Assembly (NCBI GenBank): GCA_035524935.1
Contig: DATLFD010000100.1
Location: 57,152-121,151, forward strand
From: Gammaproteobacteria bacterium
GTDB taxonomy: Bacteria; Pseudomonadota; Gammaproteobacteria; Steroidobacterales; JACDCP01
Length of the DNA: 64,000 bases
Reading direction: 5' to 3'
Under the pieces are notes generated by a model. That model worked only from the letters and a program-made list of their open reading frames with translations, did not search any database and was not told the origin of the DNA. Made by a program: the position numbers and the translations under genes. The stretch's first letter is position 1. Each line of letters opens with the position of its first letter. Of the stretch, positions 13,360 through 58,952 are shown piece after piece.

Positions 13360-14082
13360 ATGCCGACGCAAGATCTCCGCATCTGTCTCTGGTCGGGCCC
13401 GCGAAACGTCTCGACCGCGCTCATGTACAGCTTCGCGCAACGCAGCGACACCGCCGTCGTCGACGAGCCCCTGTACGGTCATTACCTGCGCGTGTCCGGC
13501 GCCCGACACCCCGGCCGCGTCGAGGTGCTCGCGTCCATGGACACGGACGGTGACCGCGTCATGCGCCGGCTGAGCGGGGACACCCCGCCGAAACCGGTGC
13601 TGTTCATGAAGCACATGGCCCATCACCTGACGCAGATCGACGACGGATTCCTGGAGCTCACTGCCCACGTGCTGCTGATCCGTGACCCCTGCGACATGCT
13701 GCCCTCGCTGACGCGCCAGCTTCCCGATGCGAAGCTGGACGACACCGGCCTCGAGCGGCAGTGCCGGCTGCTGGCGCAGCTGCGCTCGCTCGGCCAGGCG
13801 CCGCCCGTCACCGATGCGCAACGTCTGCTCGACGACCCGGCACGGATCCTGGAATCGCTGTGCGGCCGCCTCGGACTCGCGTTCGACCCGGCGATGCTGC
13901 ACTGGCCGGCCGGGCCGAAGCCGTATGACGGCGTGTGGGCGCGTCACTGGTACCACAACGTGCACCGATCGACTGGCTTCGAATCCCGCCCGCGGAGCCG
14001 GGATGCATTACCCGGGCGGCTGCTGCCGCTGCTCGCCCAATGCCGCCCGCATTACGACGAGCTGCTCGCGTGCGCGATCTGA
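13360..14082 (+). CDS. sulfotransferase-like P-loop family protein
   Basis: Coherent 240-aa ORF beginning ICLWSGPRNVSTALMYSF. Family assignment is from memory, not from a search. Confidence 0.6.
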   Translation: MPTQDLRICLWSGPRNVSTALMYSFAQRSDTAVVDEPLYGHYLRVSGARHPGRVEVLASMDTDGDRVMRRLSGDTPPKPVLFMKHMAHHLTQIDDGFLELTAHVLLIRDPCDMLPSLTRQLPDAKLDDTGLERQCRLLAQLRSLGQAPPVTDAQRLLDDPARILESLCGRLGLAFDPAMLHWPAGPKPYDGVWARHWYHNVHRSTGFESRPRSRDALPGRLLPLLAQCRPHYDELLACAI

Positions 14083-18439: not shown

Positions 18440-19873
18440 TCAGCCCGCGCCGGGTCCGCCAGCGGGCGGCTGCCCGGTCGCAGGCAGCCACAAGGTCACC
18501 GCCGCCCCGCCCGAGCGGCGATTGGAGAGCTGCAGGCGGCCGCCGTGTGCCTCGACGATCTCCCGGCACAGCGGCAGGCCGAGACCCGTGCCGCTCTGCT
18601 TGGTCGAGTAGAACGGCAGCAATGCACTGTCGAGCACCTGCTCAGTCATGCCCTGGCCGCGGTCGAGAACGCGCATGCTCAGGCCGGCTGGCCGCGATTC
18701 GATCTCGAGCTCGATCGCAGCGGGCGGGGATCCCGACTCGTGCGCGTTCTTGAGCAGGTTGATGAGCACCTGCTGGATCTGCGCCGGGTCGAACCGGGCG
18801 CTCGCGGCCGGCGCGTCCCCTCGCAGCCGGAACGGCACCGTACGGCGCAACGTTTCCAGAAATGTCGGCCAGTCCACGCACTCGGGTCGCGGCTGCGGCA
18901 GCTTGGCGAAGCGCGCATATCCGTCGATGAACGAGCGCAGGTATTCGGAGCGCTCTTCGATGGTAGAGAAAATCGCGTCGAGAGAAAAAGGGGACATTCC
19001 TGATTTCGTCGTGAGAGAAAAAGGGGACATTCCTGATTTCGTCGTGCCGCCGACAGACCCCGATCCACTCATGTCGCCTTTTTCCCGCGCGATCTGCCGC
19101 CCGGAATGCGCGAGCGAGGCGATGGGCGCGAGCGAGTTGTTGAGCTCGTGGCCAATGATGCGGATGACCTTTTTCCAGATGGCTGCTTCCTGCCGTCCGA
19201 GCTCGCGCGTGAGCTCGCGTATCAGGTACAAATCGTGCGGCCGTGAATTGAGGACGAAGCGCCGTTGCGAGTAATGCCAGGTCTTACGCTCACCGTCGAC
19301 GACAGCGGTAAGCAGGCCGTCACCGAGCCGTTGCGCGATTTCGCGAAGCGGCTTCGGCGCCGACGCGAGAACCTGGGCGAAGCGCCTGCCTTCGAGCTTG
19401 CGACCTTCGTGGAGCAGGTGGCGCGCGGCAAGGTTGCTGTAAATTACATAGTCGCCCGGCGCTGTCAGCACAGTGGCGACGGGCGCGCTCTGTATCACCG
19501 TGTCGAGCAACAGCTCGCGCTGATGGATGCCGCGGCGTTCCTCACGCAGAACGCCGACCAGATCGTTGTAACTGCGCACCATGGCTTCGAGCTCGCGGTG
19601 GCGCGAGCCGGCGATGCCCACGCTGAAGTCGCCGTCGCGCAGGTTCGCAACGCCGTCCTCGAGCGCTCCCGCCAGCTTCGCGACGGGGGTGGCAAAGCGG
19701 CGCGCGCCGAACCATGCCAGCGGGAGGGTCAGGGCGAAGGCGCCGAGCGCGCCGAGCCACGCGCTGTCGAGCAGCACGGCGAGCGTGGCCGCGAGCGCGC
19801 CCGCGGCGACCGTGACCGCCGAGGCGAGGGCCAGCAGCTTCCCTTCCAGCGAAAACATTAATGGAACATTCAT
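18440..19873 (-). CDS. sensor histidine kinase (NtrB/AtoS-like: 2 TM, HAMP, PAS, HisKA, HATPase)
   Basis: H-box HELNNSLAPIASLAHSG. N box LLKNAHESG. G boxes DRGQGM and GTGLGLPLCREIV. The alternative start at 19858 is equally possible. Confidence 0.85.
   Translation of the reverse strand: MNVPLMFSLEGKLLALASAVTVAAGALAATLAVLLDSAWLGALGAFALTLPLAWFGARRFATPVAKLAGALEDGVANLRDGDFSVGIAGSRHRELEAMVRSYNDLVGVLREERRGIHQRELLLDTVIQSAPVATVLTAPGDYVIYSNLAARHLLHEGRKLEGRRFAQVLASAPKPLREIAQRLGDGLLTAVVDGERKTWHYSQRRFVLNSRPHDLYLIRELTRELGRQEAAIWKKVIRIIGHELNNSLAPIASLAHSGRQIAREKGDMSGSGSVGGTTKSGMSPFSLTTKSGMSPFSLDAIFSTIEERSEYLRSFIDGYARFAKLPQPRPECVDWPTFLETLRRTVPFRLRGDAPAASARFDPAQIQQVLINLLKNAHESGSPPAAIELEIESRPAGLSMRVLDRGQGMTEQVLDSALLPFYSTKQSGTGLGLPLCREIVEAHGGRLQLSNRRSGGAAVTLWLPATGQPPAGGPGAG
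18980..19086. repeat. low-GC palindromic element inserted in frame inside the kinase gene (includes a perfect 33-bp tandem duplication)
   Basis: Units 18980-19012 and 19013-19045 are identical (GAGAGAAAAAGGGGACATTCCTGATTTCGTCGT). An imperfect inverted arm, ATGTCGCCTTTTTCCC, lies at 19071-19086. The element encodes TTKSGMSPFSL twice, just after the H-box. Confidence 0.75.
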
Positions 19874-19946
19874 GGGGACATTCCTGATTTATTTCCGAAT
19901 GAAAGCCGTCGGCGCGACGCCACAGATAAATCAGGAATGTCCCCAT
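19872..19946. repeat. palindromic intergenic element (21-bp perfect inverted repeat, 33-bp spacer) sharing the GGGGACATTCCTGATTT core
   Basis: ATGGGGACATTCCTGATTTAT (19872-19892) is the exact reverse complement of 19926-19946. It fills the regulator-kinase intergenic gap. Confidence 0.8.
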
Positions 19947-19950
19947 TAAT

Positions 19951-21270
19951 CTAGCGGATGCCGAACTTGTCCATGCGCCGGTAAAGGGCCTGCCGGCTCA
20001 CCCCCAGCTCACGGGCTGCCTCGGCGACTACGCCGCGGGCGTGCTCGAGCGCGGTCTGCACGGCTTCGCGGCTCGGCGCTTCGGCGCGCACAGCCCGCGG
20101 CTCGATCCCAAGATGCGGCGTCCCCAGCCGGCCATCCGGCGCGAGCAGCATCGCGCGGCGGATCGTGTTCTCGAGCTCCCGGACGTTGCCCGGCCAGTCG
20201 TAGGCCAGCAGCGCCCGCTCCGCTGCCGGCTCGATGCTGAAGCCCTGCTGCAGGAAATGACGTGCGAGGGGCAGGATGTCCTCGCGGCGCTCCGCGAGCG
20301 GCAGAATCTCGAGCTCGATGACATTGAGGCGATAATAGAGATCCTCGCGAAAGGTCCCGGCGGCGATTTCGGCCTCCAGGTCGCTGTTGGTGGCCGCGAT
20401 GACCCGTACACGCACACGACGCGTGCGGCTGCTGCCCAGACGCTCGTACTCACCGCTCTGCAGCACGCGCAGCAGCTTCACCTGACCGTCGGGCGGGAGG
20501 TTGCCGATCTCGTCGAGAAACAGGGTGCCGCCGTCGGCAGCCTCGAAACGCCCGGTGCGGCTCCTGGCCGCCCCTGTGAATGCGCCGGCCTCCGCACCGA
20601 AGAGCTCCGCCGCGACCAGATCGGCAGGCAGCGCGCCGGCATTCACCTTCACGTAAGGACCGGCCGCGCACGACGAGTTGGCCTGCAGGATGTCGGCGAT
20701 CTTTTCCTTGCCGGCCCCGTTCGCGCCCCGGATGAGCACGGGCACATCCGCGTGCGCGATGCGCGTCGCGAGCGACACGAGCTGAAGCATGTCGTCGCTC
20801 TCGAAGACCATGCCGCGCAGGTCGAACTCAGCGGCGAGCTTCTCACGTGCCCGCCGCCGCGCGTCGCTAAGGCGCTGTGACTCGCGCTCGGCCGCACGCA
20901 GCCTCAGCAGGTTGCGCGCCGTCGTCAGCAGCCGGTCGTTGTCCCAGGGCTTGCCCAGGTAATCGGCGGCGCCCGCTTTGACGAGCTCCACGGCGGTCTC
21001 GAGATGCGTCCACGCGGTGAGCAAAACGATCGGCACGCCGGGATGCCGCTCGCGAATGCGATGGAAGAGCGCGACCCCCTCCTCGCCCGAGGTCGTATCC
21101 CCGGCGAAATTCATGTCCTGGATGACGAGGTCGACGTCCTCGCGGCGCAGCACGTCGAGTCCCTCGCCGGGCGACCCGGCGCTCAGCACGCGTAGGCCGT
21201 TCAGCTCGAAGAGTACCTCGAGCGCGGTGCGCACGCCGCGCGCGTCATCGATGACCAGGACGGTTTGCAT
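19951..21270 (-). CDS. sigma54-dependent response regulator (NtrC family)
   Basis: REC domain (VLVIDDA...DLVIQDMNF). AAA+ domain with Walker A GANGAGKE and GAFTGA. C-terminal HTH ([18 protein letters not shown]). Confidence 0.9.
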
Positions 21271-56966: not shown

Positions 56967-58952
56967 ATGCACTACGACGCCCTCGCCCAGATCCTCGTCC
57001 TGATCGCAGCCGCCGTGCTCGTCGTTTCAGTGTTCCGGAGCATGCTGCTGCCGCCGATCCTCGGCTATATCGCGGTCGGCATCCTGCTGGGTCCGCACGC
57101 AGCCGGATGGATCTCCAACACCGACGACATCCGTTTCCTGGCCGAGATCGGCGTCGTGTTCCTGCTGTTCACCCTCGGTCTCGAGTTCTCGCTGCCACGC
57201 ATGATCGCCATGCGCTGGACGGTTTTCGGCCTCGGCGGCGCGCAGGTCGCGGTGACCACACTGGTCGCAGCGCTCGTCGCCTGGTGGCTCGGCGCCTCGC
57301 TCGCGAGTGCAGTCATCGTCGGCGGCGCGGTCGCCATGTCGTCGACGGCGATCGTCATCAGGCAACTGGCGGAGCAACTCGAGCTCAACAGCCGACACGG
57401 CCGGCATGCCGTGGGCATACTGTTGTTTCAGGATCTCGCCGTCGTGCTTTTCCTGGCATTGATTCCCGTGCTTGCGGCGCGATCCGATCCCACGGTGGTC
57501 GGCCTGCCGATCTGGCGGGCGCTGCTGCAGGCCGCGGCCGCATTGATCATCGTGCTCGCGGCAGGCCACTGGCTGCTGCGGCCGCTGTTTCACGAGATCG
57601 CGCGCCGGCGCTCGGCGGAGCTGTTCACGCTCACCGTGCTGCTCGTGGCGCTGGGGGCGGCCTGGGCGACCCACGCTGCGGGGCTGTCCCTCGCGCTCGG
57701 CGCCTTTCTCGCCGGAATGATGCTTGGCGAAACCGAGTACAGGCACCAGGTCGAGGCCGATATCCGGCCGTTTCGCGACATCTTTCTCGGCCTCTTTTTC
57801 ATCACCATGGGGATGCTGCTCGACCTGGAGCTGCTCGTCGATCGAGCCGGCGCCATTACCTTGCTGGTCATCGAGCTGGTGGTGCTCAAGGCCGCGATAA
57901 TCACGCTGCTGGCGCGCCGCATCTGCGAGAACTGGAATCAGGCGTCGCGCATCGGCCTCGTGCTCGCGCAGGGCGGTGAGTTCGGTTTCGCGCTGCTGAC
58001 CCTCGGCCTGCAGGACCGGCTCATCCCGCCGGCGGTCGCCCAGCCCCTGTTGACCGCCATCGTCGTCAGCATGGCCTTGAGCCCGCTGCTCATTCGCTAC
58101 AACGGCCGGCTCGCCGGGTGGCTGTTCCGCTCACGGGACGTCGATCTCGCCGACCTGATGCGAGACGAGGCGGCGACGGCCGCGGTCGCGCACCGCGAGC
58201 ACGTGATCATCTGCGGCTACGGTCGAGTCGGGCAGAATCTGGCGCGCATCCTCGAGCAGGAAGGCTTCGAATACATCGGTCTCGACCTCGATCCGTACCG
58301 CGTGCGGACGGCCCGCCAGGGCGGCGATCCGGTCTTGTTCGGCGACGCCTCGCAGGGTGACGTGCTCGAGGGCGTCGGGCTCGCCCATGCGAGCATCGTC
58401 GTGATCAGCTTCGCCGACAACATTGCGGCGTTCAAGATTCTCGACAAGGTGCGCAGCCGACGGCCCGACGTGCCGGTGCTGGTGCGCACGCAGGACGACA
58501 CCGATCTGGAGCGCCTGCAGGCTGCCGGCGCCACGGAGGTGATTCCGGAGACGCTGGAGGCGAGCCTGAGCCTGGTGTCGCACGTGCTGCTGCTCCTGAA
58601 CGTGCCGGTCTCGCGCGTCGTGCGCAAGATCGGCGATATCCGCAGCCATCGCTACAGCCTGTTTCGCAACATTTACCGCAAGCAGGACGCGCGCGTGCTG
58701 GACAGCTCGCATGCTTTTCGCGAGCAGCTTCAGGCCGTTGCCCTGCCGCCCGGAGCCCACGCCGTCGGCCGCACCCTGGCGGAGCTCGATCTCGACGCGG
58801 CGGAGATCGGCGTCACGGCCATCCGGCGCGACGGCATCGTCGGTCACCAGCCGCTCCCGGAGACGATGCTGAAAGAGGATGACGTGCTGGTCCTCTATGG
58901 CACGCCCGAGGCGCTCGAGCACGGTGAGACTTTGCTGTTGACCGGTCTCTAG
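56967..58952 (+). CDS. CPA2 monovalent cation:proton antiporter with TrkA-N/TrkA-C domains (KefB/KefC-like)
   Basis: About 13-TM Na+/H+ exchanger domain. Rossmann motif VIICGYGRVGQ. C-terminal TrkA-C. Confidence 0.9.
   Translation: MHYDALAQILVLIAAAVLVVSVFRSMLLPPILGYIAVGILLGPHAAGWISNTDDIRFLAEIGVVFLLFTLGLEFSLPRMIAMRWTVFGLGGAQVAVTTLVAALVAWWLGASLASAVIVGGAVAMSSTAIVIRQLAEQLELNSRHGRHAVGILLFQDLAVVLFLALIPVLAARSDPTVVGLPIWRALLQAAAALIIVLAAGHWLLRPLFHEIARRRSAELFTLTVLLVALGAAWATHAAGLSLALGAFLAGMMLGETEYRHQVEADIRPFRDIFLGLFFITMGMLLDLELLVDRAGAITLLVIELVVLKAAIITLLARRICENWNQASRIGLVLAQGGEFGFALLTLGLQDRLIPPAVAQPLLTAIVVSMALSPLLIRYNGRLAGWLFRSRDVDLADLMRDEAATAAVAHREHVIICGYGRVGQNLARILEQEGFEYIGLDLDPYRVRTARQGGDPVLFGDASQGDVLEGVGLAHASIVVISFADNIAAFKILDKVRSRRPDVPVLVRTQDDTDLERLQAAGATEVIPETLEASLSLVSHVLLLLNVPVSRVVRKIGDIRSHRYSLFRNIYRKQDARVLDSSHAFREQLQAVALPPGAHAVGRTLAELDLDAAEIGVTAIRRDGIVGHQPLPETMLKEDDVLVLYGTPEALEHGETLLLTGL

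Follow-up and report, generated by a model that had tools for sequence, protein, structure and literature searches.

We analyzed a 64,000-nt stretch of gammaproteobacterial DNA (positions 57,152 to 121,151 of contig DATLFD010000100.1; hereafter the window), in which an operon encoding a response regulator and a sensor histidine kinase holds two copies of a short palindromic repeat, one between the two genes and one inside the coding sequence (CDS) of the kinase. The kinase open reading frame (ORF) spans positions 18440–19873 on the minus strand, and the repeat segment is translated in frame through it. The features are collected in Table 1, where L numbers denote related loci.

Table 1. Coordinates of the repeat elements and of the genes that surround them in the window (pLDDT, predicted local distance difference test).
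Feature	Positions	Strand	Basis
Sensor histidine kinase CDS, NtrB/NtrY-like	18440–19858	−	ORF list, Pfam, homolog alignment, exact look-up, AlphaFold2 model
Whole in-gene palindromic remnant, translated EKGDMSGSGSVGGTTKSGMSPFSLTTKSGMSPF	18984–19084	−	Codon-by-codon comparison with L113 and L123; pLDDT
33-bp unit, copy 1 (17-mer core 18990–19006; 3′ arm in mRNA sense; encodes TTKSGMSPFSL)	18980–19012		Tandem Repeats Finder, 100% identity
33-bp unit, copy 2 (17-mer core 19023–19039)	19013–19045		Tandem Repeats Finder; single unit in L116
Element loop remnant	19046–19061		Comparison with the L123 and L115 loops
Decayed 5′ arm, in mRNA sense GAAAAAGGCGACATGAGTGGATC	19062–19084		Inverted-repeat pairs; intact arm in L113 and L123
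Intact family member, between the regulator stop (19951) and the kinase start	19868–19950		Inverted pair, fold z-score, ortholog comparison
Sigma-54-dependent response regulator (REC, AAA+ sigma-54 activator, Fis-type HTH)	19951–21270	−	Pfam, synteny

The repeat in the kinase gene and its counterparts in relatives

A perfect 33-bp tandem within the kinase CDS had been described in a first-pass annotation of this DNA, and Tandem Repeats Finder confirmed it (18980–19046, period 33, 2.0 copies, 100% matches). Each unit contains the 17-mer GGGGACATTCCTGATTT, of which the window holds exactly four copies, even when three mismatches are allowed (18990, 19023, 19874 (+) and 19928 (−)); the claimed sharing of this core with the intergenic palindrome was therefore borne out. 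Shuffled sequences gave an expectation of 0.08 copies, and four were reached in 0 of 100 shuffles. Candidates for further elements in the window, namely GGGGACA/TGTCCCC sites at 13576, 27489, 30226 and 39836, were rejected as chance heptamers in ordinary sequence. The imperfect inverted arm reported opposite the tandem is also real: 18979–18997 is complementary to 19071–19089 at 16 of 19 positions, and 19009–19030 to 19071–19092 at 82% over 22 nt. In line with the earlier statement that the repeat is richer in A+T than the gene around it, its G+C content was 0.47–0.50, compared to 0.67 for the window.

The remnant as a whole measures 101 nt (68 nt before the duplication) and corresponds to residues 259–291, counted from MFSLEGK. 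In the core of its 5′ arm, 7 of 17 positions differ from the 17-mer, while the flank GAAAAA is retained, and the 3′ end of the loop remnant (mRNA sense, GGCGGCACGACG) resembles the loops of L123 and L115 (GGTGGCACGACG). With a fold z-score of 0.0, the in-gene copy of the window folded no better than shuffled sequence, compared to −5.6 for the intact copy of L113; owing to the decay of the 5′ arm in the window lineage, the hairpin in mRNA or DNA is gone. The in-frame addition that had been proposed does exist, as the ORF reads through it, but not at the suggested length of about 35 residues: the net gain relative to typical homologs is 28 (42 vs. 14), of which 11 come from the duplication. Neither does the segment begin about 11 residues after the H-box motif, as had been stated; it starts 5 residues after SLAHSG and 22 after the phospho-accepting histidine.

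The intergenic copy is an intact hairpin, its arms (19868–19892 and 19926–19950) being complementary at 24 of 25 positions around a 33-nt loop, with cores at 19874–19890 and 19928–19944. Its fold z-scores were −7.5 on the minus and −6.9 on the plus strand, and its arms were preserved at the orthologous site in all five related loci. The 17-mer was missing from the outgroup operons (Povalibacter uvarum L120 and the loci L121 and L122 from metagenome-assembled genomes, MAGs).

To place the in-gene copy in time, we compared orthologous kinases. The spacer between SLAHSG and IFxTIEE measured 12–15 residues in 76 of 81 aligned homologs and 30–42 residues only in the window kinase and its four closest relatives. 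In L113, whose kinase is about 75% identical, the palindrome is intact at exactly the same codons (GAAAAAGGGGACATTCCTGATTT, 19 nt, AAATCAGGAATGTCCCCTTTT) and is translated as EKGDIPDF...KSGMSPF. It is likewise intact, at the same site and with a 37-nt loop, in L123, the one contig that a kinase-specific arm-context search of metagenomes returned, while L117 has lost both in-gene arms. An unusual AAAAA/TTTT(T) flank is common to L113, L115, L116, L123 and the window, the arms of L117 being too decayed to tell; together with the intact palindromes at the same codons, this flank points to a single ancestral insertion. The carriers share DNA, rare codons included, and not just the peptide. Since the insertion is common to lineages with kinases that are only 72–75% identical, the invasion is old rather than recent. 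The comparison shows that one ancestral in-frame insertion hit the codons of a loop in the dimerization and histidine phosphotransfer (DHp) domain, and that one arm was later lost in the window lineage. The insertion had been suggested to be lineage-specific, which agrees with distant orthologs being without the segment and close carriers having the same DNA. Its history is thus visible across relatives, from an intact palindrome through the loss of one arm to the duplication of the other.

L115 and L123 are 96.85% identical, yet over 23 nt of the 5′ arm they differ by six substitutions, against an expectation of 0.7. All six (L115:1976–1998 vs. L123:301–323) are changes to A in L115, so that one arm was destroyed in a burst, for which we have no explanation.

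With regard to the protein, a sequence search of the PDB aligned the catalytic ATP-binding (CA) domain alone, and an AlphaFold2 model built from the 81-sequence alignment was therefore used (mean pLDDT 74). It comprises a helix at residues 218–264 with the H-box His237, a segment with pLDDT below 50 (263–290), a second helix (293–317) and then the CA domain, a layout from which it follows that element residues 259–291 form the connector between DHp helices α1 and α2. The insert is predicted to occupy a disordered surface loop between these helices, and in the model the surface-loop site put forward earlier is upheld. A DHp hairpin loop would then tolerate 16–28 extra disordered residues, which may be useful for kinase engineering and offers a natural experiment on how this loop affects autophosphorylation.

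A dispersed family of palindromic repeats

An exact scan for the 17-mer in 185,579 species genomes (596 Gb) found at least 112 loci, and the family statistics given here (arms, clusters, loops and borders) rest on these listed loci, sampled as pieces of about 8 kb. Approximately 100 of the matches listed fell in Steroidobacteraceae or unclassified gammaproteobacterial MAGs, many of which held several loci, and the single matches in unrelated phyla fit the approximately 70 chance matches that we estimate for a 17-mer in 596 Gb. A link to phages was not found either, as the one match in 2.9 million viral contigs is consistent with chance. The family is at home in Steroidobacteraceae-like gammaproteobacteria, where it mostly takes the form of a hairpin placed shortly 3′ of a stop codon: 57 of 101 clusters lay at most 60 nt downstream of a stop codon, approximately 30 of them at most 8 nt. 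The search for the core that the first-pass annotation had called for thus yielded a dispersed, taxon-restricted sequence that is mostly intergenic and occasionally coding.

The 199 sampled arms gave the consensus (G/A)AAAT-GGGGACATTCCTGATTT-CC. They form 137 clusters, comprising 74 simple inverted pairs, 48 solo arms and 15 multi-arm arrays (++-, ++--, +++---), the latter indicating that tandem duplication of arms recurs in the family. Loops of the simple hairpins ranged from 5 to 300 nt, with modes at 6, 10, 16, approximately 40, 57 and 80 nt, and the longer ones enclose further hairpins, nested and belonging to a sister type, AAA[AT]GGGGACGCGCCTC... Where both arms departed from the consensus, 14 changes were compensatory and 2 were not; this covariation indicates that pairing matters, and not sequence alone. 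The flanking A/T bases, where variable, also change as complementary pairs and therefore belong to the stem. No target-site duplication was detected at the borders of 60 hairpins, direct repeats of 2–8 nt being at or below chance.

Coding copies make up about 3% of the sample (the window kinase and 3 of the 137 clusters elsewhere). A Lhr helicase (L013:2634–2749) has 53 residues that find no match in Lhr of M. smegmatis (5V9X). They separate the DEAD from the Helicase_C domain, both RecA-like, and hold a nested double hairpin of the family, which is read as NGDIPDL...SKSGMSPF and translated as NGDIPDLLAKGDRPRQ...GGPSPFASKSGMSPF. In ImuB, a paralog of Y-family polymerases, a short-loop element stands in frame at orthologous sites of two MAGs (L021:6753–6794 and L014:7186–7227), and between these copies both arms have changed in a compensatory way (ATTCC/GGAAT vs. 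ATGCC/GGCAT). Five of the six reading frames of the arm are free of stops, one of the three forward frames containing TGA, as read from the sequence. Other candidates inside ORFs were discarded: L023, the one of its pair that was inspected, and L062 look like chance similarity within genes, the matches in L027 and L041 precede the true gene starts, and L026 and L080 are in non-coding frames.

The family appears to be undescribed. A scan of the complete window against Rfam yielded no hit that passed the gathering thresholds, and the matches at E ≤ 1 were spurious hairpins of miRNA precursors, far below the cut-offs. A full-text literature search for the arm sequence returned unrelated primers only, and one for Steroidobacter together with palindromic or repetitive elements returned nothing relevant.

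A close parallel for the coding copies is found in the palindromic elements of Rickettsia (RPEs; summarized in PMC10969869 after Ogata et al. 2000, 2002), which are about 100–150 bp long and, in some families, coding in nearly half of the cases. As with RPEs, we find a dispersed palindromic repeat in frame in unrelated housekeeping genes (kinase, Lhr, ImuB), translated into an extra peptide that sits at a surface or linker position, is compatible with the fold and has long been retained. Unlike RPEs, the family lives in free-living gammaproteobacteria of 67% G+C, most copies stand directly after stop codons, the units are about 40–100 bp with a variable loop, and only about 3% of the sampled copies are coding. 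Host taxon and unit length, rather than sequence comparison, set it apart from the RPE families. In-frame colonization by palindromes is mainly documented in Rickettsia, and here it is met in free-living, high-G+C soil bacteria.

With repetitive extragenic palindromic sequences (REPs) and the hairpin doublets they form (REPINs), the family shares short hairpin repeats with a conserved head beside the stem and no target-site duplication, a mostly extragenic location at gene 3′ ends as singlets, inverted doublets or clusters, and restriction to a clade with persistence at orthologous sites (PMC3116915; bioRxiv 10.1101/2021.07.10.451892). It differs in its head (AAAT-GGGGAC rather than GTAG), in the single arm itself being no palindrome, in loops of 5–300 nt that can hold whole genes, and in that no REP-associated tyrosine transposase (RAYT) was found in the sample of about 0.9 Mb. 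[quoted passage not shown] However, the internal sequence here is not conserved between copies, no insertion sequence that shares its inverted repeats and could be its parent turned up in the sampled 8-kb loci, and the lack of target-site duplications in 60 copies means that the family is not a classical MITE. A further resemblance is to DNA uptake sequences (DUS) or uptake signal sequences (USS) in inverted pairs and to terminator-like repeats such as SPRITE, which are likewise short conserved motifs, paired directly 3′ of genes but also single or coding, with a free spacer. In contrast to DUS/USS, the motif is longer (17–25 nt), the arms covary, whole palindromes were inserted as units, no T-run follows the stem, and the density is about 10-fold lower or more, for which reason it is not an uptake sequence. 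As for terminators and SPRITE, the location at gene 3′ ends is shared, but only ATTT(T/C) follows the stem. In summary, the element works like RPEs and REPINs and belongs to neither.

Some features of individual copies stand apart. At roughly ten loci, a single base separates the stop codon of the upstream gene from the GGGG core, which puts this codon in the flank of the element (TAAT/GGGG in L001, L096 and L105); the elements thus seem to adjoin or replace the ends of genes to the exact base. Stretches of 600–2150 bp are enclosed by composite inverted arms, GGGGACATTCCTGATTT-CCTAGG-AAATGGGGACGSGCCTC and its complement, at L095:575–1844, L069:5648–7805, L065:4318–4919, L035:3889–4711 and L045:4071–5011. 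The enclosed DNA of L095, L069 and L065 includes whole ORFs with host-like codon usage, for an unknown secreted, a PAN-domain and a RidA/L-PSP protein, none of them a transposase. These genes are either cargo of the element or insertions in its loop. In short-loop copies (e.g., L038:3031–3070) the centre is ATTTCC-NN-GGAAAT, and one of them reads ATTTCCCGGGAAAT, identical to what we take to be the consensus of the B. subtilis Noc-binding site. To our knowledge, Noc is not expected in gammaproteobacteria, and the identity is therefore probably a coincidence.

Origin and persistence of the in-gene copy

In our view, the segment at 18984–19084 is quite likely the translated relic of a dispersed palindromic repeat, that is, an old in-frame insertion of which one arm has decayed and the other was recently duplicated. 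A copy of approximately 50–70 bp, with a length divisible by three, would have inserted in the common ancestor of a small clade, landing in the codons of the connector between the two DHp helices. With five of the six arm frames free of stops and a disordered surface loop as the site, the kinase would have stayed functional, with the element translated ever since. In the window lineage, the 5′ arm has since decayed while the 3′ arm stayed unchanged, and a 33-bp tandem duplication, which may have arisen by slippage or unequal exchange, followed very recently. The proposal that a mobile repeat had invaded the kinase accordingly stands as to the invasion, which is old, while what is left here is a relic that has lost an arm, and mobility of the family is something we infer from its distribution and from the insertion events. 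It may be a non-autonomous hairpin unit that spreads with the help of a trans-acting enzyme, which would recognize the AAAT-GGGGAC head and the stem. By analogy, single-strand chemistry of the REPIN/RAYT or IS200/IS605 type is suggested by the lack of target-site duplications, and the conserved head with a covarying stem, the restriction to a clade and the occurrence as singlets, doublets and arrays also speak for it. Intergenic copies, judging by their position, may act as 3′-end or intercistronic RNA hairpins.

Several observations weigh against this account, and part of them fit the alternative that the 17-nt arm is a functional, sequence-specific site, kept in the gene by selection rather than being a relic, which we regard as possible but unlikely. 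Foremost, the in-gene 3′ arm is identical at 21 of 21 positions in five lineages despite its rare codons, compared to synonymous identities of 54–71% in the same gene, and the intergenic arms are identical at 33–34 of 34 positions among relatives while their loops diverged. The arms are conserved far beyond neutral expectation, and this is unexplained; the excess therefore keeps open the reading of the arm as a selected recognition site, and makes the family a tractable system for asking what maintains repeats. Gene conversion from the intergenic copy was judged an unlikely cause, because the shared identity extends over only 17–19 nt. Further, loop sequences are mostly unrelated between copies, although clustered in length, which is unexpected for recently copied units, and neither a transposase nor a target-site duplication came to light. 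No RAYT homolog was detected by phmmer and tblastn in about 0.9 Mb (the 8-kb samples L001–L118 and the window) with a single, insensitive query, E. coli TnpA_REP, validated against 4ER8. An all-vs-all BLAST of the 1239 ORFs of the loci revealed no gene family recurring next to the elements; the clusters obtained were heterogeneous groups of paralogs that contained no transposase and offered no orthologous series of use. Arm pairs 600–5000 bp apart enclosed ordinary genes or cassettes and no transposase. The long hairpin was not called a terminator by a consensus scan, since it has no T-run.

Such a site might bind a protein on DNA or RNA, resemble an uptake signal with a tendency to form inverted pairs after genes, or be the long-range RNA partner of the intercistronic hairpin beside the kinase start codon; the in-gene arm is complementary over 20 nt to an intergenic arm at a distance of 921 nt. 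On this reading, the tandem would amount to a doubling of the site. In Neisseriaceae and Pasteurellaceae, inverted uptake sequences act as terminators and occur in coding regions too (PMC2346458). The 48 solo arms among the 137 clusters, only about one-third of which have a recognizable decayed partner, point in the same direction. However, the arms reached the kinase, Lhr and ImuB as whole palindromes by insertion, they covary, so pairing counts as well, L117 lost both in-gene arms without visible damage to the gene, and no binding protein is known. The density is also low, with 4 arms in 64 kb, whereas DUS/USS occur roughly once per kb. Insofar as it concerns the persistence of the arm and not its arrival, this alternative is partly compatible with the relic. 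The stronger claim, that the arm is a host-maintained cis element (a binding site or long-range RNA partner) selected even inside a CDS, and no selfish debris, seems to us quite improbable; if true, it would define a new class of hairpins at stop codons, with no RAYT, GTAG head or target-site duplication, which also inserts in frame into proteins and brackets single-gene cassettes between composite inverted arms. Hardly credible, finally, is that the segment is an ancestral or lineage-specific kinase linker resembling the palindrome by coincidence or local duplication. Within the window the 17-mer does occur only at this operon, but the same arms occur at more than 100 unlinked loci of related MAGs, the segment is missing from 76 of the 81 homologs, and the carriers, two of them with a perfect in-gene palindrome, share its DNA down to rare codons.

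With regard to the 33-bp unit, for which variable length had been foreseen, the window and L116 are identical at 430 of 430 aligned codons and have two units and one unit, respectively. Because the two sequences differ in the gene by this one unit only, the duplication, which adds 11 codons and lengthens the loop, is very recent as judged from the alignment, and it is probably polymorphic. Against this counts that the one-copy L116 comes from a k=31 Logan assembly, in which the tandem may have collapsed. That the difference is an artefact, due to such a collapse or to spurious expansion in the MAG, with no real polymorphism, we nevertheless hold to be very unlikely. Both sequences are short-read assemblies, and no second two-copy sequence was found among homologs, by exact look-up or in the metagenome arm-context search. 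On the other hand, a 66-bp tandem is shorter than a typical read, and a period-33 tandem should form a cycle in a k=31 de Bruijn graph, which would normally break the contig instead of being crossed silently. Further, a single-nucleotide polymorphism (SNP) in the intergenic flank (19870) also separates the window from L116, marking them as independent assemblies, and tandem arm duplications with a spacing of 23–55 nt recur in 15 of the 137 clusters, from many assemblies. It is extremely doubtful, in turn, that the unit is a contingency locus, where frequent, reversible changes in copy number tune the DHp loop length and hence kinase signalling (e.g., cis/trans autophosphorylation). The unit is in frame, its copies are perfect, their number differs between otherwise identical genes, and DHp loop geometry affects the direction of autophosphorylation. 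Nonetheless, only two states and a single two-copy sequence were observed, the loop is predicted to be disordered, and a two-copy 33-bp repeat changes at a much lower rate than the short-unit repeats of classical contingency loci.

The kinase, its operon and annotation

The kinase comprises transmembrane, HAMP, PAS, DHp and HATPase_c domains, the last detected by Pfam at E = 7.7e-22. Pfam recognized HisKA in some insert-free homologs and not in the window kinase; nevertheless, the H-box HELNNSLAPI with its histidine invariant in the homolog alignment, the helical hairpin and the C-terminal HATPase_c identify it as a HisKA-type kinase. Compared to L115, codon positions 1, 2 and 3 are identical at 92, 95 and 72%, indicating that the gene is under purifying selection. 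Response regulator and kinase form one operon with the regulator gene upstream, synteny is kept in L113 and L117, and the conserved gene order is FtsX, FtsX, regulator, kinase, BlaI, BlaR1/TonB.

The intergenic copy probably tunes the ratio at which regulator and kinase are expressed. Unrelated hairpin repeats were seen at the regulator–kinase junction of L120:2400–2510 and L121:2350–2510, e.g., CCGTCATTCCCGCGAAAGCGGGAATGACGG in Povalibacter, whereas the regulator and kinase genes of L122 overlap (ATGA). Hairpins thus seem to be attracted to this site, or needed there, time and again.

By exact look-up, the window kinase corresponds to the deposited protein HUO83414.1 (477 aa; gammaproteobacterial MAG contig of 136 kb), which starts at the ATG at 19873, within the flank of the intergenic palindrome (CCCCATGAATG). 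L116 carries T for G in that flank (CCCCATTAATG). The position of MFSLEGK is where most homologs begin, among them P0001, P0002 and the proteins of Povalibacter. The probable kinase start is MFSLEGK at 19858, the upstream ATG probably being a spurious start made by one SNP. Elements of this type are an annotation hazard, disrupting the detection of HisKA by Pfam and creating spurious starts and small ORFs of the MGTFLI or NQECPH type. In the window, repeat arms read in other frames or strands give rise to spurious ORF peptides at 18648–19274 (+) and at 19542–19949 (both strands), such as REKGDIPDFVV, MGTFLIY... and ...NQECPH, which are likely annotated as hypothetical proteins in such genomes.

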